A program made the translations under genes and the position numbers. DNA of 64,000 nt from an uncultured Gammaproteobacteria bacterium (GTDB lineage Bacteria; Patescibacteriota; Microgenomatia; UBA8517): NCBI GenBank assembly GCA_964395115.1, contig CAYMZX010000001.1:14751-78750 (forward strand). The letters are read 5' to 3'. A model generated the notes under the pieces. That model saw only the letters and a list, made by a program, of their open reading frames with translations. It had not been told where the DNA came from and did no database searches. Below, in pieces: positions 54,116 through 63,490 of the stretch. How positions within the stretch are numbered: the stretch's first letter is position 1; the number at the start of each line of letters is the position of its first letter.

Positions 54116-54742
54116 ATGGCCGAAGATAATCGAGAGTTTTCTCCAAAAAAGCCTCTCCATGACCGCCAGGCTGCGCTGGCGGCGATTAAAAGAGCGCAGA
54201 AAAAAGGAACTTGGCCTGAAAGAGAGCCCCAAAACGAAGGCAATCCCCGCGAGGAAAAACAGTATCCAACTCCAGAAGAACAGAAAAAAGCCCTTGCCTC
54301 AATCCCCTTTAGTTACGAAACTATTCCCTCTATTATTAAGAAAGAGTTGACAGCAGAAGCAAAAAAACTCAACACTATGATGATGGAAAAGGCAGAGCCA
54401 GAACCGAAAAAGGTTTCTCCACCTAATCCTAATCAACCCATTAGCCAATCAGATAAATACGAAGGAATAGGAATAAAAGAAATTCTCCGCCAAGGAGCAA
54501 CTAAGGCAGAGTCTTTGAAGCGAGTACCTCCACTTCCTGCCAAAGAAGAAGAATCCTTTCCACTACCACCTTCTCAAAGACCTTATGTAAAACCTCCGCC
54601 ACTTAAACCTGTCCCTATCGCGGAACCGCCCCTTCCTCCTGAACAAAGATTGCGACAACAAATAAGAAAGGCTCCAGTAGATGTGTCACCAAATGAATCC
54701 TATCTGAAAAGAATCTGGAAAAAGTTGACAGGAAGAGTATAA
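54116..54742 (+). CDS. hypothetical Pro/Lys/Glu-rich low-complexity protein inserted between rplA and rplJ
   Basis: 208-aa ORF with PPLP/PLPP repeats. No motif. Occupies the slot normally holding the L10 leader. Confidence 0.4.
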   Translation: MAEDNREFSPKKPLHDRQAALAAIKRAQKKGTWPEREPQNEGNPREEKQYPTPEEQKKALASIPFSYETIPSIIKKELTAEAKKLNTMMMEKAEPEPKKVSPPNPNQPISQSDKYEGIGIKEILRQGATKAESLKRVPPLPAKEEESFPLPPSQRPYVKPPPLKPVPIAEPPLPPEQRLRQQIRKAPVDVSPNESYLKRIWKKLTGRV

Positions 54743-55313: not shown

Positions 55314-55820
55314 ATGGCAGATGATAAAGTTCAAGAAGAAATAAAAGAAGAGGTCAAAGCCGAAGAGGCAAAAGAGGAGGTTAGCGAAACCAAAAAAGAG
55401 AAAAAAGGAGAAAAGGCCCTTTCCAGCAAAGTCGGAAAATTGGTTGATGAAATTTCGACTCTTTCCGTACTGGAACTTTCTGAACTTGTAACCGCTTTGC
55501 AGGAAAAGCTGGGTGTCACCGCTCAAGCTCCTGTTATGACCACTGGTCCTTCTAGTACCGCCCTTGCTGGAGAAGCTCCCGCAGAAGGTACAATGGGAGG
55601 GGGCGCAGTTAACCAAACGGTTATCATGACCGACGCTGGAACAAATAAAATCGCCGTTATTAAAGCGCTTCGAGAAATTAATCAAAATTTAACGTTGGTT
55701 GAAGCGAAGAATATGACCGAACAACTTCCGGCTGAAGTACTAAAAGACGCCAAGGCGGAAGATGCAAAAAGTGCTGTTGAAAAACTCAAAGCTGCTGGGG
55801 CAACGGTTGAGGTTAAATAA
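55314..55820 (+). CDS. rplL: 50S ribosomal protein L7/L12 (extended N-terminus)
   Basis: C-terminal domain KIAVIKALREI...LVEAKNMTEQLPAEVLKDAKAEDAKSAVEKLKAAGATVEVK is the canonical L7/L12 CTD. Confidence 0.9.
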   Translation: MADDKVQEEIKEEVKAEEAKEEVSETKKEKKGEKALSSKVGKLVDEISTLSVLELSELVTALQEKLGVTAQAPVMTTGPSSTALAGEAPAEGTMGGGAVNQTVIMTDAGTNKIAVIKALREINQNLTLVEAKNMTEQLPAEVLKDAKAEDAKSAVEKLKAAGATVEVK

Positions 55821-55888: not shown

Positions 55889-56164
55889 TCAGCGACTTAG
55901 ATTTTGAATTGCCGCGTAGACGAAAAGACTTATTGCTCCTATTCCGGCAACTGCAAATAATCCGAAAAGGAAGCAGTTCAGGCCTTCGTTTTGTTCTTTC
56001 GATCTAAAAAATAGACCGAGAGCCCCGGCGCAAACCCCCAAAAGAAATTGGAAGCTTGCCAAAAGCGGCCTTCCATAATGAACAGCAGCGATGCTTAAGG
56101 CGAAGCTGATTATCGCCAAATGGCCGAAAACCACTGCCAGCTGATACTCCCTTTGGGAAATCAT
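55889..56164 (-). CDS. small 3-TM membrane protein (last gene of ATP-grasp operon)
   Basis: 91 aa, three hydrophobic helices. Confidence 0.45.
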   Translation of the reverse strand: MISQREYQLAVVFGHLAIISFALSIAAVHYGRPLLASFQFLLGVCAGALGLFFRSKEQNEGLNCFLFGLFAVAGIGAISLFVYAAIQNLSR

Positions 56165-56216
56165 CTGACCCCTCCTTTTTTCCTTTTTTCGGTCAGTTCT
56201 GCCAAAGAGCGCGCGG

Positions 56217-57185
56217 CTATTTTATCACGAAGCGACTAGAAGAATCCAATTTTTTAGCAAAATTGTCTATCAGTTCCTCCAAAAAGGCATCTCTTTGCTT
56301 CATTTCCCAGCGAGGGAACCCAATCTGGTCGTTTATTTCGAAAATCCTGGGAACTCCGTCCTTTCCCATTCCAAAATCAATACTAAAAAGGGGGTTGTCA
56401 TATTTCTTGTAAAAATTTACAGCAATTTTATCGACAATTATTTTAATTTCATCCGGAACCAAACGGTAGTCAATCTCGGTCAAAACCCCACCGCCGGCGG
56501 CGTTGGCTTTAAAACTTCCTGTCGGGGGAACCCTGACATGTGACCAAACGGCTTTTCCATTTACAATGACAACCCTTAAATCGTGCATACTTAATGTGAC
56601 ATTAGAAATTCCGCCTGATGTATCTACAAATTCCTGGGCAATATATTTTGGATACTTTTCTAAAAAATTAAATTTGAGAGCTTTTGATTTTGGACCAATA
56701 AAAATGCCGATCCCTTTCAGACCGTTATACGGTTTCAGAACAACCCAGTCGCTCTTAATAAAAGAGAGCATTTTAGCCAAATTATCTTTCTTCCCCACCC
56801 AAAAAGTTTTGGGCATATATTTGCCGATTTGTCGATAGGCTTTCCATTTATCCCAGGCCAAAATTTTAAAATCCCGTCTATTAACCCAGATAACAGTCTC
56901 GTCATTTTCCGGCGGAAAGGCAATTCCGGCCGAACGGTCGTAAACCAAATCGATCCTGACCGGTTTAGTAATTTTTTCAAATTTACCCCGATAGAAGCGC
57001 CAGCTTTTGAGAAAATGACCATCTCCTTGATATGTCCGCCTCGTTAAAACATAAACTTCCCAACCTCTTTTTTGACACAACTCTAAAAATCGAAGATAAA
57101 CAGGAAGTTTGGCGCCGATATGGGCAAGAGGGAAATTTCCGACAAATGGTCTAGAAAACAGAATTCCGACTTTAGCTTTGGCCAT
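56217..57185 (-). CDS. ATP-grasp fold amidoligase (YheC/YheD or RimK-related)
   Basis: ATP-grasp motifs: LKPYNGLKGIGIFIG (Lys/Gly-loop), QEFVDTSGG, DLRVVIVNGKAV, FKANAAGGG (N-x3-GG), FSIDFGMGKDGVPRIFEIN (Mg/ATP E-x-N). Confidence 0.65.
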   Translation of the reverse strand: MAKAKVGILFSRPFVGNFPLAHIGAKLPVYLRFLELCQKRGWEVYVLTRRTYQGDGHFLKSWRFYRGKFEKITKPVRIDLVYDRSAGIAFPPENDETVIWVNRRDFKILAWDKWKAYRQIGKYMPKTFWVGKKDNLAKMLSFIKSDWVVLKPYNGLKGIGIFIGPKSKALKFNFLEKYPKYIAQEFVDTSGGISNVTLSMHDLRVVIVNGKAVWSHVRVPPTGSFKANAAGGGVLTEIDYRLVPDEIKIIVDKIAVNFYKKYDNPLFSIDFGMGKDGVPRIFEINDQIGFPRWEMKQRDAFLEELIDNFAKKLDSSSRFVIK

Positions 57186-58094
57186 TTATTTACATACTTC
57201 TGCCAAATAATCGGATAATTGGTCAATTTCTGGAGAAATTTTAGTATCATACGTCAAACCAGGTCCCCGGTTAACCTCGATCAACCAAATTTTATTGCTT
57301 CCCTTTTCGATGCCTATATCTACTCCGGCAATTTGAAAATTTAATGTTTTTACCCCTTTAATTGCGACTGAATAAATTTCTTTAGGGATTTTTGAAATTG
57401 GTAAAAACAGTTCTCTCGCCCCTAGGGCAATATTGTGGCGAAATTCATTTTTAGAAGTAATAAGCTTTTTTTCCCAAACCCTGACTTCATTGCCTAAAAC
57501 AAGAAGGCGGTATTCGTCTTTTATTTCGATATACTTTTGAAACATAAATTGATTTTCTTTTCCCTCTTTATCTTTAATCGGCAATTTGGCGAAATCTTTT
57601 TTAGACTTTATTTTGAAAACCCCTTGTCCCCTTTGCATTGAAAGCTCTTTAGCCACCAAAGGAAATCCAAATTTTTTTATTATCCGTGATTGGTATTGCT
57701 CAATGTTTGTTGACCAAACATAAATCGTTGGTACTACCGGCAACCCCGCCAGAGAGAGGCGGACCAAAGAAGTAAGCTTGCTGCCCAAGGGACCAATTTG
57801 AGACCAGCAACGGTCAATAAATTTAATCTTTGATCTTTCGAGAGGGAGAGCCAAAGTTCCGGCCAAATCAGAAAAAATTTTTCCTACCCGACGGAAGTAA
57901 ACCAAATCATAATTATTTATTGGTAATCTTTCAATTTCGACTGAAATATCTCCGTCATCGATTTCGAAATAGAGATCGGAAAATCTCGCCAGGGTGATTT
58001 GAAAATTTCTATCTGCCAATTTTCGGGCGATAAGCTCCGCCAAAAGCTCTTTTTTTGTGCCGATCTTATCTACCAAAATAAGAATTTTTTTCAT
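57186..58094 (-). CDS. RimK-like ATP-grasp ligase
   Basis: FPLVAKELSMQRGQGVFKIKSKKDF, QKYIEIKDEYRLLVLGNEV, RHNIALGA, IAGVDIGIEK...IWLIEVNRGPGL match the RimK/GSH-synthetase-type ATP-grasp. Confidence 0.7.
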   Translation of the reverse strand: MKKILILVDKIGTKKELLAELIARKLADRNFQITLARFSDLYFEIDDGDISVEIERLPINNYDLVYFRRVGKIFSDLAGTLALPLERSKIKFIDRCWSQIGPLGSKLTSLVRLSLAGLPVVPTIYVWSTNIEQYQSRIIKKFGFPLVAKELSMQRGQGVFKIKSKKDFAKLPIKDKEGKENQFMFQKYIEIKDEYRLLVLGNEVRVWEKKLITSKNEFRHNIALGARELFLPISKIPKEIYSVAIKGVKTLNFQIAGVDIGIEKGSNKIWLIEVNRGPGLTYDTKISPEIDQLSDYLAEVCK

Positions 58095-58096
58095 TT

Positions 58097-59392
58097 TTAA
58101 GCTCTGACCAAAAAACCTTTCAAATCCCGCCTTCCAATAATGACCGGCGAACGCAAATGTTCACGATTGGCAACGTTGGCAAGAGTAATAATTTTTCTTC
58201 CCGCCAGATAAAAAGTTAAGTTGACAACCTGTCTTTTCTCCCTACCCAAACCGCTTTTGTAATACTTAGTCCAAAGAACATTGCTTTTTCGAGTAATTCC
58301 GAGTCTTTCTGCCAAAGTTTTATCAATCGAAGTCCTCCAAGCTCCCGTGTCCAATTTCGCCGGTACCTCAATTTTCTTAGCGTTCGCCGAGACAATTTTT
58401 ATCTTTTCCCAGATATCCACTGTTTTTATTCCCTCTTCGGCCGCCACCCTATCAGCAAATCTTCCGGCGAAAAGTGCCTGGCCAATTTTTACACCCTGGT
58501 CTTCTCGACGAACATCTAACCCCTCAACTCTTTCCAATCGTTTTCTTAAACCTTCCATATTTGCCAGCTGGATCTGCAGACCGGGCTGGGCATTTAGTTC
58601 CAACACCATCGGCCCTTTTTCTGGGTGAAGGACAATATCAATCCCGGCATATCCCAATCCCGAGGCTGTACCAGCGGCAACTGCTGTTTCTAGTATCTTT
58701 GTCCAACTGGGTATTTTTATTCCTCGAAGTTTTCTTTTAGTTCCTGGTTTATAAACTATTTGTACTCCGTGCCAAATTGCTCGAGTAGTTATACCAGTGG
58801 CGATATCTATCCCGACTCCAATTGCTCCTTGGTGTAAGTTGGCTCGGCCCTGCGATTCTTTGGTTGGCAGCCTAAGCATCGCCATAATTGGCACCTTATT
58901 AAAAACAATAATCCTAATATCCGGGGTTCCTCTGTACGCATATTTTCTAAAAGTTTTATGACGGCCGACATATTCTTGAATAAACGCCACATCCGGTTCG
59001 TTCCGCATACTGTACGCCCCTTCGAGTATATCCAGTACATGCAACTTTAAATCCTCGATGGTCACTCTTTCTCTTTGGGTCGTAATCCATCCTTCAAAGG
59101 GCGGTTCGGCTTTCTTTTTAACAACAATTATTCCTTCTCCTCCCAAACCTCGGCTTGGTTTTAGAACAAACGAAGCAGGCAGATTTCCCCAATCATAATC
59201 TTCTACATCCGATGGCCGTCTGAACTTTTTAAGTATTTCGGGGTGCGGAATACCGTTGGCTTTAAGAACCCTGGCGGTTTGAATTTTTGAATCGGCAATT
59301 TTTTTGCCTTTCAGGGAATTATATCGGTAGGCGAAAAGCTGAGTGCGAGCGTTGAGGCCAAGAATCGTAGAAACATTCATAAGTTCCATCAA
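58097..59392 (-). CDS. ATP-grasp ligase (RimK-related) fused to C-terminal retropepsin-like aspartic peptidase domain (DUF785-type)
   Basis: N-terminal ~300 aa carry ATP-grasp motifs (VLKPSRGLGGEGIIVV, QEYVGRHKTFRKYAY, RANLHQGAIG, GYAGIDIVL...LELNAQPGL). The C-terminal ~120 aa contain AKLDTGAWRTSID (D-T-G-A aspartic protease signature) and a VIIGRRDLKGFLV flap-like end. Confidence 0.7.
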   Translation of the reverse strand: MMELMNVSTILGLNARTQLFAYRYNSLKGKKIADSKIQTARVLKANGIPHPEILKKFRRPSDVEDYDWGNLPASFVLKPSRGLGGEGIIVVKKKAEPPFEGWITTQRERVTIEDLKLHVLDILEGAYSMRNEPDVAFIQEYVGRHKTFRKYAYRGTPDIRIIVFNKVPIMAMLRLPTKESQGRANLHQGAIGVGIDIATGITTRAIWHGVQIVYKPGTKRKLRGIKIPSWTKILETAVAAGTASGLGYAGIDIVLHPEKGPMVLELNAQPGLQIQLANMEGLRKRLERVEGLDVRREDQGVKIGQALFAGRFADRVAAEEGIKTVDIWEKIKIVSANAKKIEVPAKLDTGAWRTSIDKTLAERLGITRKSNVLWTKYYKSGLGREKRQVVNLTFYLAGRKIITLANVANREHLRSPVIIGRRDLKGFLVRA

Positions 59393-60289
59393 TCAAGTTT
59401 TAATAAGCTTTCTAAATCTCCAAATCTCTAGGATCCTTAACCCAGAATACTTACCCAAGAGATAATCAAGGATCAATAGTCCCACCAGATACCACTCTGG
59501 ATTGAGAAGAGCAAATTCCTGAACCACTTTCAAGGTCAGGAAGAAATAGGACACGAGGGCCAAAATAAGCGTTTCTGTAGTCAGGTTGATGGCCGTTTTT
59601 ATGCTTTTTCCCAACTGAACCCGGATGAAATCTTCGGCCAGCAGAGCCATTATGAGAATTGGGAAAATAGACACATTGGTCAAATCGGGGTAGCGAATTA
59701 CCGGGGTAACAAAAAGAACGGCCATTACCGAAAAAGAAACAACCCAAAGAATAAGGGCCATACGCGGTAAGTACTGAAGTTTTATTTTCAATCTTCTCAA
59801 GAGCATTCTGGTCAGAGTAGAAACGGCAACGATAAGCAAAAAGAGAGCGATTCCCAAAATTGGCCGAGTCGCCAGAAAGACTACCGATAAGGCGGCTGGC
59901 AGGAAAATTCCAAATCCCCTAAGACCAACCAGATGTCTAGCGGCGGCAATAATTAAAGCAACTAAGGGCAGGAGAAGAAGTAAAACGATAGTGTTGGCTG
60001 GAACACCGGTTTTTACGGCTCCCCGTATGGCGTATTTTAAGGGATTGGCAGGCCACACAGGTCCCAATTTTTGGTCTTCTAAAAGTTCCTCCAATGGACC
60101 TAATGTCTCCTTGGTTTTTTGAGTCAAATCCGGCACTGGGGTTGGAAGCGGAGTCGGCTCAAAGATCGGGCTAGCGCTTGGACTCGGGCTGACCACAGCA
60201 AAGACTGGCTCGGTTAAAAAGCCTAAAAAAACCATAAACAACGCCAAAGAAAAAATAAGCCTGCGCATGGGAAATAATTTAGGAGTCAA
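59393..60289 (-). CDS. polytopic membrane protein with Pro-rich N-terminal segment (possibly 7TM partner of RimK-associated systems)
   Basis: Signal/anchor helix, a PSPSASPIFEPTPLPTPVP segment, then ~6-7 transmembrane helices. Assignment by architecture only. Confidence 0.4.
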   Translation of the reverse strand: MTPKLFPMRRLIFSLALFMVFLGFLTEPVFAVVSPSPSASPIFEPTPLPTPVPDLTQKTKETLGPLEELLEDQKLGPVWPANPLKYAIRGAVKTGVPANTIVLLLLLPLVALIIAAARHLVGLRGFGIFLPAALSVVFLATRPILGIALFLLIVAVSTLTRMLLRRLKIKLQYLPRMALILWVVSFSVMAVLFVTPVIRYPDLTNVSIFPILIMALLAEDFIRVQLGKSIKTAINLTTETLILALVSYFFLTLKVVQEFALLNPEWYLVGLLILDYLLGKYSGLRILEIWRFRKLIKT

Positions 60290-60297
60290 TTATACAA

Positions 60298-60597
60298 CTA
60301 CGGGGCGGTTTCTTTCCACCTCATCCTTCCTTTGGGTGAGGATTCGAGGGATTGAAGTCTTAAAGAGGATGTAAGAACTTGTTCGGCAAAAAAAAGACGG
60401 CTTTTTTTATTTTTCATCGAAGAAAGGGGGTCTCTTTTCCCTACAAAGTGTCTTATAATCCTGAATATCTCATCCTTGTTCTTGATATCATTCCAAAGTC
60501 TATTAGCAAGGCCAATTTTCTCTTTCTGGTTTCTGGCCATCCAATTAGCAATTCTTCTTAGGTCAGAGGCAGCATTTAGGTAATCGGCCTTCGTCAT
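60298..60597 (-). CDS. small protein with conserved C-terminal R-M-R-W-K-E-T-A-P tail
   Basis: 99 aa. Its last 9 residues and the underlying ~33 nt are repeated at the end of 60906..62474. ATGA overlap with the upstream 88-aa gene. Confidence 0.45.
   Translation of the reverse strand: MTKADYLNAASDLRRIANWMARNQKEKIGLANRLWNDIKNKDEIFRIIRHFVGKRDPLSSMKNKKSRLFFAEQVLTSSLRLQSLESSPKGRMRWKETAP
60309..60341. repeat. ~33-bp repeat copy A (3' end of 99-aa gene)
   Basis: TTCTTTCCACCTCATCCTTCCTTTGGGTGAGGA, about 85% identical to copy B at 60917-60949. Confidence 0.7.
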
Positions 60598-60860
60598 ATC
60601 AAAAAACGCTTCGCAGTTTTGATAAACTTTTTTCTAATTTCCGGATTTAGAATTTCCATTAGGTCAAATCCCCCGCCCCAGATATTTCTTTGGCGTGACC
60701 CATTTTTTATTAAAATGTTTTCTGAATCGGCATGAAGCTTTCCTCCCATCGCCATAACTTTTCTTTCAATATCAACAACGATTTTTATATAATCTTCAAA
60801 TTCTTCTGCCGCCATCAGGATGTCTTTTTTTGTGGCCTTTTTCTCCAAATAAACAATCAT
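60594..60860 (-). CDS. small hypothetical protein
   Basis: 88 aa, translationally coupled to the 99-aa gene. Confidence 0.4.
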   Translation of the reverse strand: MIVYLEKKATKKDILMAAEEFEDYIKIVVDIERKVMAMGGKLHADSENILIKNGSRQRNIWGGGFDLMEILNPEIRKKFIKTAKRFLI

Positions 60861-60905
60861 TCCTGAGCAATAATATCATAAAATTCGGTAGGGGCGTTTT
60901 TTATG

Positions 60906-62474
60906 TTATGGTGCTACTTCTTTCCACCTCATCCTTCTCTGGGTAAAGACTCTGGGGAAAGTGACAATAATTTCCGGGGCGTATTCAAAAAGTTCAGCCG
61001 GAGTATTCGTATTGGCGTCTCCCAAATCTCTTTCAAGAACAACTCCGTCATAAGCAACGACCGACCCTCTAACATAAAGCTGTTCGGTGCCGGCTCCGGT
61101 GCGGAACTCTCCCTCGGCAAAATAAATGCCTTCAAGCTCGGGGTTTGTTGGTTGGGAAACAGAAGGATCGACAAAAATGTTCCCTTTAAACCCATTGGCG
61201 TCTTTGCCGACTATTACCATAAAGAAGCCGCTTCCCGGATTTTGAATATTGATGCGCCCGTTAAGATAAAGGTCGGCTCCCTCTACAAAAAGAACAACCT
61301 TCCGGCTGCCGGTTAGGTTGACATTGCCGTTAATTGTCAAATCCCCCCGGGTTGCCCCGTTCCAGTGATACCAAACATAGCCCCGCGAAGGTGCCCCTCC
61401 CGAATTAAAAGTTCCCCCAGTAACCGGCGGGGTGAGTTCGTTGATAATGACATCGTCGGGAATTTGTCTCTTGAAATACGAGTAGTCGTAGGCTCTGCCG
61501 GTATATCTGGAGTTAACCAGCCAATTATAGGGATCTTCGGCCGCCCTTCCCGTTCCGGCTCCAGCTTGAAAATCGGCGATGGCCCCTCCGTAAGCCGGCA
61601 CTCCAGGAAATCCTCCGGCCCCCCTTAATCCAAAAACCGGATTACAGGCAGGGATAGTGCAAATAGTGGGAATTAACGAAATGATATTCCCGTTGGTGGT
61701 TACATCCGCATCTTTTACCTGCCACCAAGGACCGGGGGGGGTAACATTAACGGTTGAAGTGTCGTTGCAACGGGAAGATCCGCCCATAATGACATCGGCC
61801 CTGACGGTGGTTGAGCCGGGGAAAACCCCGGTGGCCGAAGTGGAATAGACAGCGGTTGTGTCCGAAGCGGGGTTAACCGTCGCAATCCCGGTATTTGCCG
61901 AAGCGAAGTTTACCTGGCTGACGGTGCCTGAACCTATGGTTACGCTGGCGGTAAGTTCAACAGCCGAACCCACCTGGGTGGTAACGGTATTGGGAGTCAA
62001 ATCAACCGTGCAAGAAGGAGTGGGGGTAGGAGCTGGGGTTGGAGTGGGCGCGGGAGTATCTTCTCTGAGACAGCAACCTGTTGTGTAGGAAAATTCTGGG
62101 GCGCACGTGGTTTTACTCGAATTAATAATACAACCTGATTGCCATTGCGTTCCTGCTCTTTGAAGGTAGGACACAGGGTAAATTGTAACACGACACGATA
62201 TATTGTTAGGACTACTTAAACAGTTCCTACTACCACCCCCCATACAGGACCACCACCCATTGCAGCCCCATAATTCATTATTAGAGCATTGAAATGTGTT
62301 ACCATTTAAAAAACATTTCTTTGCATTTATATTCACCCTAATGGTATAATCAGGAATACCGCAATACCAACCTACTCCACATGCTTGGTCGGCAAAAACG
62401 GTATTAGCTCGATTTATAAAAAAGAAAAGGATTAATACTAAGACCTTTAATAAAGCAGAATATATTCGCCTCAT
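60906..62474 (-). CDS. secreted Cys-rich protein with Pro/Thr linker, Ig-like (Big_2-type) domain, beta-rich C-terminal domain and R-M-R-W-K-E-V-A-P tail
   Basis: Signal peptide MRRIYSALLKVLVLILFFFINRANTVFA, a ~140-aa region with more than 16 Cys, TPAPTPTPAPTPTPS linker, an Ig-like segment (TVDLTPNTVTTQVGSAVELTASV...), repetitive beta-helix-like G/N-rich segment. Confidence 0.5.
   Translation of the reverse strand: MRRIYSALLKVLVLILFFFINRANTVFADQACGVGWYCGIPDYTIRVNINAKKCFLNGNTFQCSNNELWGCNGWWSCMGGGSRNCLSSPNNISCRVTIYPVSYLQRAGTQWQSGCIINSSKTTCAPEFSYTTGCCLREDTPAPTPTPAPTPTPSCTVDLTPNTVTTQVGSAVELTASVTIGSGTVSQVNFASANTGIATVNPASDTTAVYSTSATGVFPGSTTVRADVIMGGSSRCNDTSTVNVTPPGPWWQVKDADVTTNGNIISLIPTICTIPACNPVFGLRGAGGFPGVPAYGGAIADFQAGAGTGRAAEDPYNWLVNSRYTGRAYDYSYFKRQIPDDVIINELTPPVTGGTFNSGGAPSRGYVWYHWNGATRGDLTINGNVNLTGSRKVVLFVEGADLYLNGRINIQNPGSGFFMVIVGKDANGFKGNIFVDPSVSQPTNPELEGIYFAEGEFRTGAGTEQLYVRGSVVAYDGVVLERDLGDANTNTPAELFEYAPEIIVTFPRVFTQRRMRWKEVAP
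60917..60949. repeat. ~33-bp repeat copy B (3' end of 522-aa gene)
   Basis: CTTCTTTCCACCTCATCCTTCTCTGGGTAAAGA; encodes the ...RRMRWKEVAP C-terminus. Confidence 0.7.
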
Positions 62475-62485
62475 GTTTTTTAACT

Positions 62486-63091
62486 TTAAAGACTAATCTG
62501 GGAAATTTGAATGAAATATTCGCCTTTAGGAAATCCACTTTTTTCCAATAATGCTTTCTTCAGCTTTTCAATAAAAATCAGATAAGATTCTGTCTGCTCA
62601 CTACTATCTAACATTTGAAAGTTTTTATCCTGCGTCACGATAAAAAGCTCGAGTAAATCTCCCCTCTTGATATTACTAATAACTTCTCCCGGGGGGGTAA
62701 GCTCACATCCTTTTGTGTTCGCACACACTCCAACTAAGGGATTTCTTCCTCCCAGCCTAGCATTATAAGCGTGCATCCTCCCGAATTTGTCGAAATACCC
62801 TATTTTTAGGAAAGCCTCATTCTCTGAAATATTTTGAACTTTTGCGATGCAAGCAATTGTAGTCCACGCTTGAAACTCTGCATCCCCAAACTCATAGACA
62901 TTGGACAATACTCCTGTAGAATAAGGCCGGCCAAAGATATCTCTACATACTAGTACTTTTTCCGTAACCAAAATTCCTAAAATGAAGAAAAAAATAACCA
63001 AAAATAATAACGCCCCAATAATCAGTAAAGTCGCTTTACTAGATTTGTCCTTAGATTGTTCGGAGCTAATGTTTTTTCCGATTTCCATCAA
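62486..63091 (-). CDS. membrane-anchored hypothetical protein
   Basis: N-terminal transmembrane helix (LLIIGALLFLVIFFFILGILV) then a ~150-aa domain with several Cys. Confidence 0.4.
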   Translation of the reverse strand: MMEIGKNISSEQSKDKSSKATLLIIGALLFLVIFFFILGILVTEKVLVCRDIFGRPYSTGVLSNVYEFGDAEFQAWTTIACIAKVQNISENEAFLKIGYFDKFGRMHAYNARLGGRNPLVGVCANTKGCELTPPGEVISNIKRGDLLELFIVTQDKNFQMLDSSEQTESYLIFIEKLKKALLEKSGFPKGEYFIQISQISL

Positions 63092-63268: not shown

Positions 63269-63490
63269 TTACTCTGTTTTCTCTTGCATTCCTAATAACC
63301 AGAGTACTGCTTCTTTCTTATAGCGCCGGTCGCCTCGTGAATTAATCCTGATTGCCGGTAGCTTTCCTCGCTTTCCCCAGCGCTTGATGGTCAAGGGTGA
63401 AACGCGCAGAAGCTCGGCCACCTCCCGCACCGTAAGAAGGTCAGGAAGTTCTTCGAGTCTTATCTTTTTCTTCATCCCCTCTTCAGTCAT
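63269..63490 (-). CDS. excisionase/MerR-superfamily helix-turn-helix DNA-binding protein
   Basis: LLTVREVAELLRVSPLTIKRWGKRGKLPAIRI matches the excisionase-family HTH. Confidence 0.6.
   Translation of the reverse strand: MTEEGMKKKIRLEELPDLLTVREVAELLRVSPLTIKRWGKRGKLPAIRINSRGDRRYKKEAVLWLLGMQEKTE

Follow-up and report, generated by a model that had tools for sequence, protein, structure and literature searches.

Why do a secreted 522-aa protein and a 99-aa protein, encoded in the same orientation upstream of three ATP-grasp ligase genes, end in nearly the same residues? In a first-pass annotation of the 64-kb stretch of Patescibacterial DNA analysed here (the window), the shared tail was proposed to be a tag for the ligases and the eight genes around it as one apparent operon. 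The explanation considered probable in this work is an insertion scar behind a surface-protein gene, followed by a separate ligase operon, with a tail that is not a tag.

Layout of the locus and its repeated gene end

All eight minus-strand ORFs of the first-pass annotation were confirmed, coordinates included. The features of the locus are listed below in the direction of transcription.

62486-63091, minus strand: membrane-anchored 201-aa protein, directly upstream of the 522-aa gene (context)
60906-62474, minus strand: WKEVAP-family secreted protein, 522 aa (N-terminal signal/anchor, variable Cys-rich region, Ig-like Big_2 domain, beta-solenoid, RWKEVAP-COOH)
60906-60958, minus strand: resident, attL-like gene-end copy; last 53 nt of the 522-aa gene, stop codon included
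60594-60860, minus strand: DUF5674 protein, 88 aa (Pfam), cassette gene 1
60298-60597, minus strand: p86-family protein, 99 aa, cassette gene 2, overlapping the DUF5674 gene by 4 nt
60298-60350, minus strand: attR-like orphan, a displaced second copy of the 522-aa gene's 3' end; putative right border of a 608-nt cassette insertion
60289-60318, minus strand: promoter-like site TGGAAA-18 nt-TATAAT, by consensus match only (10/12)
59393-60268 (60289 also given), minus strand: RloB-like 7TM membrane protein (PF14402)
58097-59389 (59392 also given), minus strand: RloC-like fusion of ATP-grasp and PF05618 retropepsin domains (ATPgrasp_ST, TIGR02291)
57186-58094, minus strand: RimK-like ATP-grasp ligase, 302 aa (Pfam RimK, TIGR00768)
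56217-57185, minus strand: third ATP-grasp ligase, 322 aa, RimK/ATPgrasp_ST-like (Pfam)
55889-56164, minus strand: 91-aa protein with three hydrophobic segments, last gene of the operon, poorly conserved

The gaps between the eight ORFs are, in order, 45, -4, 29, 3, 2, 0 and 52 nt; the final stop codon is 68 nt away from that of the convergent rplL gene. For the 201-aa protein, genes of similar size were present at the same position in loci L048 and L052, with no detectable sequence similarity. The 91-aa protein had no match in Pfam or NCBIfam; among related loci its sole match was a 46-aa fragment in L001.

Both tails are encoded in frame and directly followed by a stop codon, as ...RRMRWKEVAP in the 522-aa protein and ...GRMRWKETAP in the 99-aa protein. 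The repeated 3' segment that encodes them, previously put at about 33 bp, was recovered as a 31-nt repeat with 84% identity and a spacing of 608 nt. Its identical 20-nt core, GAAGGATGAGGTGGAAAGAA, occurs exactly twice in the window (0 expected); beyond this core the resident and orphan copies show 6 differences in the final 12 nt. When one 1-nt indel was allowed, the similarity reached 53 nt (41/53), out of frame upstream of the indel. A third copy of the tail was not found in the 64 kb at either the protein or the DNA level.

The W-x-E-V-A-P terminus was present in 119 of 120 homologues of the 522-aa protein, where it closes a conserved beta-solenoid domain of about 370 aa, and residues E519 and P522 are invariant. 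Judged from these alignments, WKEVAP-COOH is the family-wide C-terminus of a predicted secreted surface-protein family, and it may act as a docking or assembly motif. The C-terminal domain resembles ComZ, a competence protein of the pilus tip in Thermus thermophilus (PMC6561018), and the DUF3494 ice-binding beta-solenoids, at an identity of only 11-18%; unlike ComZ, the 522-aa protein has a Sec-type signal instead of a prepilin leader or pilin fold. In other genomes the family often adjoins type IV pilus gene clusters; no pilus genes were found in the 64-kb window. The tail itself was modelled as a low-confidence coil (pLDDT 66 dropping to 47). Such a flexible coil is the look expected of a free recognition motif, which is a point against the explanation favoured here.

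The 99-aa protein presented a different picture. Its p86 homologues are 72-95 aa long and end in ...SSLRLQNKF, and the tail was found in none of 21 (eight cluster representatives and 13 further library representatives). In loci L083 and L112 the host gene end and an orphan copy enclose the same DUF5674-p86 cassette, with p86 stopping just ahead of the orphan tail; in L073 the p86 stop codon falls within a degenerate orphan tail, in another frame. In L052, L118 and L098 DUF5674-p86 also follows the gene end, and a right-hand orphan was not detectable. In the window the ORF continues into the orphan gene end for about 13 codons, and the 99-aa protein carries the second tail because of this read-through. 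From these comparisons the tail of the 99-aa protein is likely accidental rather than a mark read by the ligases. The DUF5674 protein (Pfam E 1e-17, profile positions 3-64 of 109) carries a 21-aa internal deletion relative to its aligned homologues. In eight genomes its gene lies 17-75 nt behind a WKEVAP gene end, and the DUF5674-p86 pair has a toxin-antitoxin-like architecture.

Orphan gene ends and cassettes in other genomes

Orphan gene ends of 22-148 nt, one to four per locus, were detected in about 14 of 50 distinct other loci for which the downstream sequence spans at least 1 kb. They lie only downstream and on the same strand, where they bracket small cassettes; a control scan (332 kb and 300 kb) returned 18 matches in the downstream same-strand compartment and none in the three others. 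Most orphans are non-coding, with frames open for only 7-49 codons, and their identity stops at the stop codon. Mismatches between resident and orphan copies fall at third positions in the V, A, P and stop codons (identity 0.32-0.48 compared with at least 0.92 at codon positions 1 and 2); therefore each orphan formerly ended a working gene. Orphans match the resident tail of their own genome, which is compatible with in-situ duplication or gene conversion too.

Among the cassette contents are DUF6922+AbiEii, BrnT+CopG, HicA, DUF5678+Asp_protease_2, NUDIX+HIT, radical SAM, and sugar and glycosyltransferase genes; unrelated genomes carry the same cassette types behind the gene end. Between genomes, tail-plus-cassette units are more similar than flanking genes (87.6% vs 79.6% and 91.9% vs 73%). 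An empty site in L066 and an occupied one in L073 (two cassettes, 1.34 kb) share both flanks, and L058 and L060 diverge from L061 within the last ~12 nt of the gene. Insert sizes range from 0.37 to 5.5 kb. The cassettes scanned and their surroundings yielded no recombinase, so the insertion mechanism is one that we infer. Given the orphan gene ends and the recurrent bracketed cassettes, the apparent operon is therefore probably composed of three modules: a surface-protein gene, an inserted cassette and a ligase operon. The ORFs, their orientation and their tight spacing stand as first described; the ligase operon proper, self-contained and of a kind widely conserved in Patescibacteria, is confined to 55889-60268.

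Integrative elements that target gene 3' ends, such as tRNA and tmRNA islands or e14 at icd, duplicate that end, and integrase-less CIMEs accrete in tandem. The loci described here share with them direct repeats of the target's 3' end that bracket the inserts, an intact target gene, multi-insert arrays, and relatives with empty and occupied sites. What sets them apart is the very small size of the inserts (0.37-5.5 kb), the lack of a recombinase in those scanned, a surface-protein gene of Patescibacteria as the target, and a repeat that measures 22-148 nt. Small, toxin-antitoxin-rich tandem cassettes with a repeated site and a fixed anchor are also reminiscent of chromosomal integron arrays. 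Unlike in integrons, intI was not observed, the repeat consists of the coding end of a gene and has no attC-like hairpin, and some cassettes hold several genes, which point in both orientations. The cassette hotspot appears to be new to the literature.

For the window, we propose that the 3' end of the 522-aa gene was the exact integration site of a 608-nt mobile DUF5674-p86 cassette. Integration would have kept the target gene intact and left a displaced second copy of its end beyond the insert. The p86 ORF, whose usual stop codon is missing in this lineage, would then run in frame into the relic and gain its RMRWKETAP tail by accident.

Alternative readings of the shared tail

The orphan tails might instead be leftovers of tandem surface-gene paralogues, mostly deleted or overwritten, rather than products of site-directed integration. 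Tandem paralogues do occur (two full genes in L052), synonymous-site mismatches are what ends of former working genes would show, and an integrase was not found with the scanned cassettes. Against this, remnants never exceed ~148 nt and always reach the stop codon, the same cassette types follow the gene end in unrelated genomes, and tail-plus-cassette units are better conserved than the flanking gene. Together with the empty and occupied sites between common flanks, and the close strains that part exactly within the last ~12 nt of the gene, this makes an origin from paralogues unlikely. Very unlikely is a DNA or RNA role (promoter -35, 3'-end processing or terminator) for which the repeat is kept, the coding look on the 99-aa ORF being incidental but selected. 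The promoter-like site reaches from the orphan tail, which holds its -35 box, to the beginning of the 7TM operon, with its -10 box just past the stop codon of the tail; further, TGGTATAAT-like extended -10 boxes lie 5-15 nt behind many tails. However, the spacing from TGGAAA to the -10 box varies among loci from 18 to >30 nt, the region as a whole was not enriched for promoter-like sites over shuffles, no significant secondary structure was found (z -0.3 to -1.3), and mismatches track codon positions rather than a nucleic-acid motif.

In the first-pass annotation, RMRWKE(T/V)AP was suggested to be a recognition tag on co-encoded substrates: the ligases would extend it, the retropepsin would trim it, and the 7TM protein would couple the process to export. 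C-terminal modification by RimK-type enzymes is known (PMC12239564), the motif ends both proteins upstream of the ligases in the same orientation, and the invariant E519 and the flexible coil would suit a tag. In eight metagenomic loci besides the window the surface-protein gene precedes the ligase operon, by 86 nt to 4.4 kb. These loci are scattered over the ligase tree, and a looser functional link between surface gene and ligase operon may therefore exist. Nevertheless, the WKEVAP family has the operon downstream in only nine of about 50 of its own loci, no member of the family occurred within 10 kb of any of the 47 species-representative ligase loci, the ligase operon also occurs in lineages without a linked WKEVAP gene, and the family is often found beside pilus clusters instead. 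The ligases are cytoplasmic, unlike the tailed protein with its signal peptide, whose Ala-Pro terminus also contrasts with the acidic C-terminus used by RimK. The annotation itself had named absence of the tail from homologues and missing co-conservation with the ligases as evidence against a tag, and both were observed. A ligase-read tag was rejected as extremely unlikely on the tailless 99-aa homologues, the mostly untranslatable relics elsewhere and the absence near the 47 ligase loci. An insertion scar next to a separate ligase operon is the reading retained below.

The ligase-peptidase-membrane operon

Pfam and NCBIfam searches confirmed the predicted machinery of three ATP-grasp enzymes, a DTG-type retropepsin-like domain and a polytopic membrane partner; the matches to the C-terminal retropepsin domain were weak. 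The 7TM protein matched 7TM_transglut (PF14402; E 1e-24, 87.7 bits), and its match to NCBIfam RloB was confined to positions 312-507 of the 508-position model (53.8 bits against a cut-off of 900). By hydropathy it comprises a signal/anchor segment, a Pro-rich extracytoplasmic stretch and the 7TM domain; a transglutaminase-like domain is absent. In the fusion, an ATP-grasp domain (about 58523-59338; ATPgrasp_ST E 1e-64, TIGR02291 E 2e-79) precedes the PF05618 domain (about 58100-58429). The latter retains the catalytic D348-T-G-A motif, with D348, T349, G350, A351, K346, R387 and R410 invariant, and its profile matched RloA structures (9g59, E 3e-9; 9g58, E 1e-8). Foldseek placed the AF2 model of the fusion with RimK 5zct (E 2e-8) and RloA 9g58 (E 1.5e-6). 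The 302-aa ligase, with nucleotide- and Mg-binding motifs retained, matched Pfam RimK (E 5e-15) and, under the cut-off of 143 bits, TIGR00768 (85 bits); its top PDB sequence match was Pseudomonas RimK 7qyr (E 4e-7). The 322-aa ligase matched Pfam RimK (E 6.5e-9) and ATPgrasp_ST (E 1.7e-8) and nothing at E<0.01 in a PDB sequence search; orthologues with 53-64% identity occur in several Microgenomates loci.

The 7TM gene lay directly upstream of the fusion gene in all 45 informative loci (Microgenomates, Parcubacteria, Saccharibacteria, Gracilibacteria), and one to three extra ATP-grasp genes were present in about 35 of 47 ligase loci. The core has its counterparts in the RimK/RimB and RloABC modules (PMC12239564) and in existing Pfam and TIGRFAM families, and there are more than 4000 homologues of the fusion, named alpha-L-glutamate ligase-like at NCBI; the system is thus not as undescribed as first thought. 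The general idea of a ligase with a trimming peptidase fits. In the Gracilibacteria locus L047 the retropepsin is replaced by a MATCAP-type carboxypeptidase fused to the same ligase. This recalls the tubulin tyrosine ligase/MATCAP cycle, in which a peptidase undoes the addition made by an ATP-grasp ligase; the analogy differs in that the present system is bacterial and the window encodes a retropepsin, not MATCAP.

RloABC is the retropepsin-like osmotic stress tolerance operon of Pseudomonas aeruginosa (Lormand et al. 2025, PMC12239564), for which poly-Glu cleavage by RloA/RimB and rloB/rloC epistasis were reported; RimK-type enzymes act on protein C-termini, and 96% of RloB matches are in Proteobacteria (PMC12239564). 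Like RloABC, the operon co-encodes a TIGR02291/PF14397 ATP-grasp enzyme, a PF14402 7TM protein and a PF05618 retropepsin with a DTG motif. The poly-Glu-binding K46, R114 and R137 of RloA would correspond, by alignment and motif spacing, to K346, R387 and R410. Unlike in RloABC, the protease lacks a signal peptide and is joined to the C-terminus of a cytoplasmic ligase, no inactive transglutaminase domain is present in the 7TM protein (in some relatives a PKD domain takes its place), two additional RimK-like ligases are present, scores fall under curated NCBIfam cut-offs, and the host is a monoderm-like Patescibacterium. With RimK/RimB (RimABK, polyglutamylation of ribosomal protein S6) it shares a cytoplasmic alpha-L-glutamate-ligase-family ATP-grasp enzyme and a cytoplasmic retropepsin-like poly-Glu-trimming peptidase, and the 302-aa ligase is nearest to Pseudomonas RimK; it differs in its membrane partner, the ligase-protease fusion and the RimK-subfamily score below cut-off.

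Judged from its domains, the operon is an uncharacterised Patescibacterial variant of the RimK/RimB and RloABC module. Its cytoplasmic alpha-L-glutamate-ligase-like enzymes would, by family membership, build acidic peptides or tails of the poly-Glu type, a chemistry extrapolated from proteins 19-24% identical to the Patescibacterial ones. The fused retropepsin domain, with its conserved DTG motif and the counterparts of RloA's poly-Glu-binding Lys/Arg residues, would trim or release these products, and the RloB-like 7TM partner would couple the ligase-peptidase process to the membrane.

Locus layout and the repeated gene end

Three modules make up the region: a surface-protein gene of ComZ/IBP-like type, a mobile cassette (DUF5674-p86) with a copy of the duplicated gene end on either side, and an operon of the Rlo/Rim-variant type. 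The eight minus-strand ORFs described in the first-pass annotation were all recovered, with inter-ORF gaps of 45, -4, 29, 3, 2, 0 and 52 nt, and the convergent rplL stop lies 68 nt from the last stop of the run. The genes relevant here are:

60906-62474, minus strand: 522-aa secreted surface protein (WKEVAP family) with a beta-solenoid C-terminal domain
60594-60860, minus strand: DUF5674 gene, first gene of the cassette
60298-60597, minus strand: p86-family gene encoding the 99-aa protein
59393-60289, minus strand: 7TM protein, PF14402 (7TM_transglut), E 1e-24, 87.7 bits
58097-59392, minus strand: ligase-protease fusion, PF14397 (E 1e-64) and TIGR02291 "alpha-L-glutamate ligase-like" (E 2e-79)
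57186-58094 and 56217-57185, minus strand: RimK-like ATP-grasp ligases (Grasp2 and Grasp3), from domain searches

The shared tails were borne out, the 522-aa ORF ending in RRMRWKEVAP and the 99-aa ORF in GRMRWKETAP; the motif was found in no further ORF or frame of the 64-kb window. At the DNA level the repeat comprises 31 nt with 84% identity and a spacing of 608 nt. A 20-nt core is identical in both copies (two exact occurrences in 64 kb versus 0 expected) and is followed by six differences within 12 nt. The repeated GGATGAGGTGG resembles a Shine-Dalgarno sequence, but this reading was rejected because the next start codons are at least 29-45 nt away and the repeat keeps to the reading frame of the gene before it.

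Two genes upstream of the 522-aa gene lies a 73-aa HTH_17/MerR gene with an excisionase-like fold (63269-63490, minus strand). Homologues of 71-86 aa cluster upstream of the 7TM operon in nine GTDB loci devoid of the surface-protein gene, and the one scanned among these (L001) was likewise HTH_17/MerR. As such homologues precede the operon without the surface-protein gene, this gene belongs to the conserved backbone and not to a cassette. On the opposite side, within the rplKAJL cluster, a 208-aa Pro/Glu/Lys-rich ORF is located between rplA and rplJ (54116-54742, plus strand). Its sole detectable relative is a 196-aa ORF at the same position in the related locus L093 (42% identity over 101 aa); in many relatives this position is a gap of 0.4-1.8 kb. 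If its first ATG is used, rplL (55314-55820, plus strand) encodes 168 aa, of which about 40 at the N-terminus form a Glu/Lys-rich extension; ORFs called in the same way in relatives range from 127 to 173 aa.

The ligase-protease operon

Domain searches, profiles and an AF2 model showed the previous enzyme annotation (ATP-grasps, retropepsin and membrane partner) to be correct. The fusion scored 218.7 bits with PF14397, above the cut-off of 31.4, and 266.9 bits with TIGR02291, short of the curated cut-off of 314.2. TIGR00768 gave 85.3, 54.5 and 48.3 bits for the three ligases, none of which reached the cut-off of 143.4; the Pfam RimK domain is present in all three. The best PDB sequence match of Grasp2 was RimK (E 4e-7), and its nucleotide- and metal-binding motifs are intact in an alignment with Pseudomonas RimK. 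Grasp3 had no match in the PDB sequence search; its sequence retains equivalent motifs. The 7TM protein matched NCBIfam RloB at model positions 312-507 of 508 (53.8 bits; cut-off 900), covering the C-terminal 7TM half only.

Domain searches with the C-terminus of the fusion gave weak matches to PF05618, Asp_protease_2 and RloA2/3, and a profile search of the PDB with the whole protein returned RimK only; detection of the retropepsin domain required a separate profile. That profile, built from the C-terminal domains of fusions from 27 Patescibacterial loci, matched the RloA crystal structures 9g59 (E 2.8e-9) and 9g58 (E 1e-8), and residues D348-T-G-A, K346, R387 and R410 were invariant in 36 close homologues. 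Since family conservation and the 27-locus profile replace the weak single-sequence matches, the retropepsin assignment is solid. The AF2 model (pLDDT 72.6 overall, 74-90 in the C-terminal domain) matched both RimK (5zct, E 2e-8) and RloA (9g58, E 1.5e-6), in line with the folds previously proposed. No signal peptide was found on the fusion or before its retropepsin domain.

Conservation was scanned with one genome per GTDB species, which yielded 47 loci encoding the fusion. Identity was 63-77% within Woesebacteria/Microgenomates and 38-51% in Parcubacteria, Falkowbacteria, Moranbacteria, Kaiserbacteria, Saccharibacteria and Gracilibacteria. The 7TM gene was directly upstream in all 45 loci with room for it (45/45), one to three extra ATP-grasp genes followed downstream in about 35 of the 47, and the cluster converged with rplKAJL in 21 Microgenomates loci, as in the window. 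Upstream neighbours included an HTH_17/MerR gene, an ABC transporter, UppS, WecG and MreB.

Several variants were observed. In a Gracilibacteria MAG (L047:1058-3391; DATDAE010000112.1) the RloC-like ATP-grasp is joined to MATCAP (PF08014, tyrosine-carboxypeptidase family) and lacks the retropepsin, which is a swap of the peptidase domain inside an otherwise conserved 7TM and ligase pair. Two RimK-like ATP-grasp domains are fused in tandem in the downstream ligase of two loci, giving a protein of 612-613 aa (L014:11290-13131, L017:11335-13173). Long 7TM partners (517-538 aa) of Parcubacterial and Falkowbacterial origin are encoded at L037:8437-9996 and in L034, L038, L040, L042 and L043; the N-terminal extracytoplasmic part of the L037 protein consists of a PKD domain, in place of an inactive transglutaminase.

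These protein families are said to have been linked first by Iyer et al. in 2009. The claim that the operon represents a system not yet described could not be maintained, as the same three families occur in one operon in RloABC and the fusion has more than 4000 homologues in a large protein database, many of them named "alpha-L-glutamate ligase-like protein" by NCBI/JGI. In RloABC, which is marked by osmotic or envelope phenotypes and described by Lormand et al. 2025, RloA is a secreted retropepsin that cuts stretches of at least eight Glu residues, RloB a 7TM inactive transglutaminase and RloC an ATP-grasp; deletion of rloB or rloC suppresses the defects of a triple protease mutant, and the system is related to RimK/RimB, which add and trim poly-Glu on ribosomal protein S6 (PMC12239564). 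The presence of these families in one conserved operon suggests that the window module would work like a Rlo/Rim module. By alignment and motif spacing, the invariant K346, R387 and R410 look like the counterparts of K46, R114 and R137, the residues of RloA that bind poly-Glu. However, RloA is separately encoded and secreted with a signal peptide, whereas the window retropepsin is the C-terminal domain of a cytoplasmic ligase. In the latter respect the module resembles RimK/RimB, which has a cytoplasmic PF05618 peptidase partner, and the C-terminal domain matches the RloA/RimB family. Moreover, RloB has a transglutaminase domain that is missing from the window 7TM protein, and the window operon contains extra ligases. 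The window operon is thus a Patescibacterial variant of the Rlo/Rim ligase-protease-7TM operon and not an orthodox member, given the fused cytoplasmic protease, the missing transglutaminase, the additional ligases and the equivalog cut-offs that were not reached.

The C-terminal tail and the ligases

All 119 full-length homologues of the 522-aa protein end in ...AE.FEYAPD...FP....R.RWKEVAP, two of them with one extra residue. E519 and P522 are invariant in the family, and W517, V520 and A521 nearly so. Because of this conservation the RWKEVAP tail is a genuine and probably functional C-terminal motif specific to the family, for which we infer a docking role. A complete type IV pilus cluster adjoins a 58%-identical homologue, and at least two prepilin-like ORFs occur within 10 kb at 13 WKEVAP-family loci; neither pilus genes nor prepilin-like ORFs were found in the 64-kb window. 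At L052:2012-9614, upstream of a DUF5674-p86 pair, a three-gene unit is present twice in tandem, consisting of a 341-545-aa protein ending in ...WWD(D/N)N..., a membrane protein of about 220 aa and a WKE(I/V)TP-family protein; the family thus expands by paralogy.

The tail of the 99-aa protein has a different history. Its family is small (72-95 aa) with a strongly conserved N-terminus, and the tail was absent from eight database clusters and from the 13 representatives obtained in an exhaustive HMM search of 1.84 billion proteins, all of which stop a few residues past ...SSLRLQN.... The p86 gene is invariably preceded by DUF5674, the two overlapping by 4 nt, and in eight genomes the pair lies 17-75 nt past the end of a WKEVAP gene. 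In L083 and L112 it is situated, as in the window, between the host gene end and an orphan, i.e. a displaced downstream copy of such a gene end, and p86 stops just before the orphan; in L073 the orphan is degenerate and contains the p86 stop codon in a different frame. Given the tail-less homologues and these stops before or out of frame within the orphan, the in-frame read-through of the window p86 is a lineage-specific accident. A 21-aa internal deletion in the window DUF5674 suggests decay. At L089:7689-8324 an AbiEii-like cassette ORF of 211-221 aa runs into an orphan gene end, terminating in EVEKYNWKEVAP and a stop codon; it is a second accidental tail fusion, parallel to the 99-aa protein. 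PADLOC and PHROGs searches with the DUF5674, p86, 201-aa and 91-aa proteins gave nothing beyond one weak p99 match, a REase_II/HinP1I-like match on p99 (E about 5e-4) being too weak to be trusted, and nothing relevant was found in the literature on DUF5674 or on CPR cassette hotspots.

The first-pass annotation had proposed that the tail is a tag read by the ligases. Such a pathway is unsupported, and it should be dropped as an explanation of the locus: instead of being shared by several unrelated families, the motif is conserved in the WKEVAP family only, and the p86 tail is confined to this lineage. Clustering of tail and ligase genes, which the annotation had named as a check, was not seen, with no tail motif within 10 kb of the 47 species-representative ligase loci. 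At eight WKEVAP-family loci besides this genome the 7TM operon does follow the gene, at a distance of 86 nt to 4.4 kb; these loci are scattered across the ligase tree. We read this proximity as patchy regional synteny in Microgenomates, repeatedly broken at the intervening insertion hotspot, which contrasts with the 45/45 linkage of the core operon genes. A functional link between the surface-protein gene and the ligases is very unlikely.

Cassettes at the 3' end of the surface-protein gene

Orphan gene ends were surveyed in 80 metagenomic loci retrieved via the family alignment and in loci from earlier look-ups. Of 50 distinct loci for which 1 kb or more of downstream sequence was available, about 14 carried one to four extra copies of the last 22-148 nt of the gene. 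Most orphans have frames open over 7-49 codons only and no plausible starts (e.g. L050 at 5342 and 8818). When the last 24 nt of each gene were used in a control scan requiring at least 20 matches, all 18 copies detected lay downstream on the same strand; the opposite strand downstream and both strands upstream had none. Identity of resident and orphan ends was 0.92-1.00 at codon positions 1 and 2 of W-K-E-V-A-P; at position 3 of the V, A, P and stop codons it was 0.32-0.48, and directly past the stop codon it fell to background. Each orphan therefore once terminated a functional gene, and it is the coding end that defines the repeat. Two identical viral-contig matches to the degenerate tail pattern, within an unrelated 771-aa ORF and with one open codon upstream, were dismissed as chance.

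The intervals between gene-end copies span 0.37-5.5 kb and contain the following.

Content of intervals between gene-end copies
DUF6922 and AbiEii: four genomes
BrnT and CopG: two genomes
HicA
DUF5678 and a retropepsin-like protein
NUDIX and HIT
coiled-coil 90-aa gene: three genomes
radical SAM/SPASM
ABC transporter
sugar-modifying and glycosyltransferase genes

Larger intervals (L076:11545-19833, L089:9025-14478, L062:4012-7264) encode glycosyltransferases, DegT aminotransferase, GFO/IDH oxidoreductase, sulfotransferase, epimerase, SDR and PfkB, a content typical of flexible surface-glycan islands. Tail-plus-cassette units were more similar than the adjacent surface-protein genes (87.6% versus 79.6% identity in L050/L061; 91.9% versus 73% in L061/L067). 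L066 and L073 share the gene and its downstream flank, with 1.34 kb and two cassettes lying between them in L073. When L058 and L060 are compared with L061, identity is 96.6% until the final ~12 nt of the gene, after which the sequences are unrelated. The identical core of the window repeat, followed by six differences in 12 nt, is the same signature as in other loci diverging near the gene end. The orphan pattern, the shared units, the breakpoints between strains and the window signature together point to cassettes being inserted and exchanged directionally and at one focal site, the 3' end of the surface-protein gene.

Extended -10-like boxes (TGGTATAAT / TTGTATAAT) often occur 5-15 nt past gene ends or orphans, for example at these positions:

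60289-60318: window, a TGGAAA/TATAAT site
L061:2706-2725
L050:8816-8830
L089:7375-7390

Cassettes and the 7TM operon may hence be transcribed from promoters abutting the repeat.

Integrative elements that target 3' ends resemble this arrangement in that the insert is flanked by direct repeats of the 3' end of the target gene, which stays intact, and in that empty and occupied sites are found in relatives (L066 versus L073; L058 and L060 versus L061). Such elements encode an integrase or recombinase; no recombinase domain was detected in a non-exhaustive scan of 30 cassette ORFs. Integrons differ by their adjacent intI, which was not seen beside the gene-end copies, and by attC sites that fold as imperfect hairpins, whereas single-strand folds of four tail regions (z -0.3 to -1.3) revealed no attC-like folding. 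We tentatively consider the last ~21-30 nt of the WKEVAP gene as a Patescibacterial attachment site for cassette capture, at which toxin-antitoxin, nucleotide-hydrolase and surface-glycan genes would be accumulated and swapped from lineage to lineage. Possibly, such a system is integron-like, without linked integrase or attC hairpins, and so far undescribed. More speculatively, it might draw on DNA imported through the type IV pilus, an apparatus to which the ComZ-like protein seems linked.

As regards the operon, the genes of a Rlo/Rim-type ligase-protease-7TM module are tightly linked and almost universally present in Patescibacteria, in a form with a fused cytoplasmic protease and extra ligases; the minimal CPR module and the MATCAP swap provide comparative constraints on what the module makes. 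The most novel element of the region is the cassette hotspot. Ultrasmall CPR genomes otherwise show few recognisable mobile elements, and in such genomes the 3' end of this conserved, pilus-associated-like surface-protein gene behaves as a site where small cassettes insert recurrently and in one direction, which offers a tangible starting point for understanding how accessory genes are acquired and traded among CPR bacteria.
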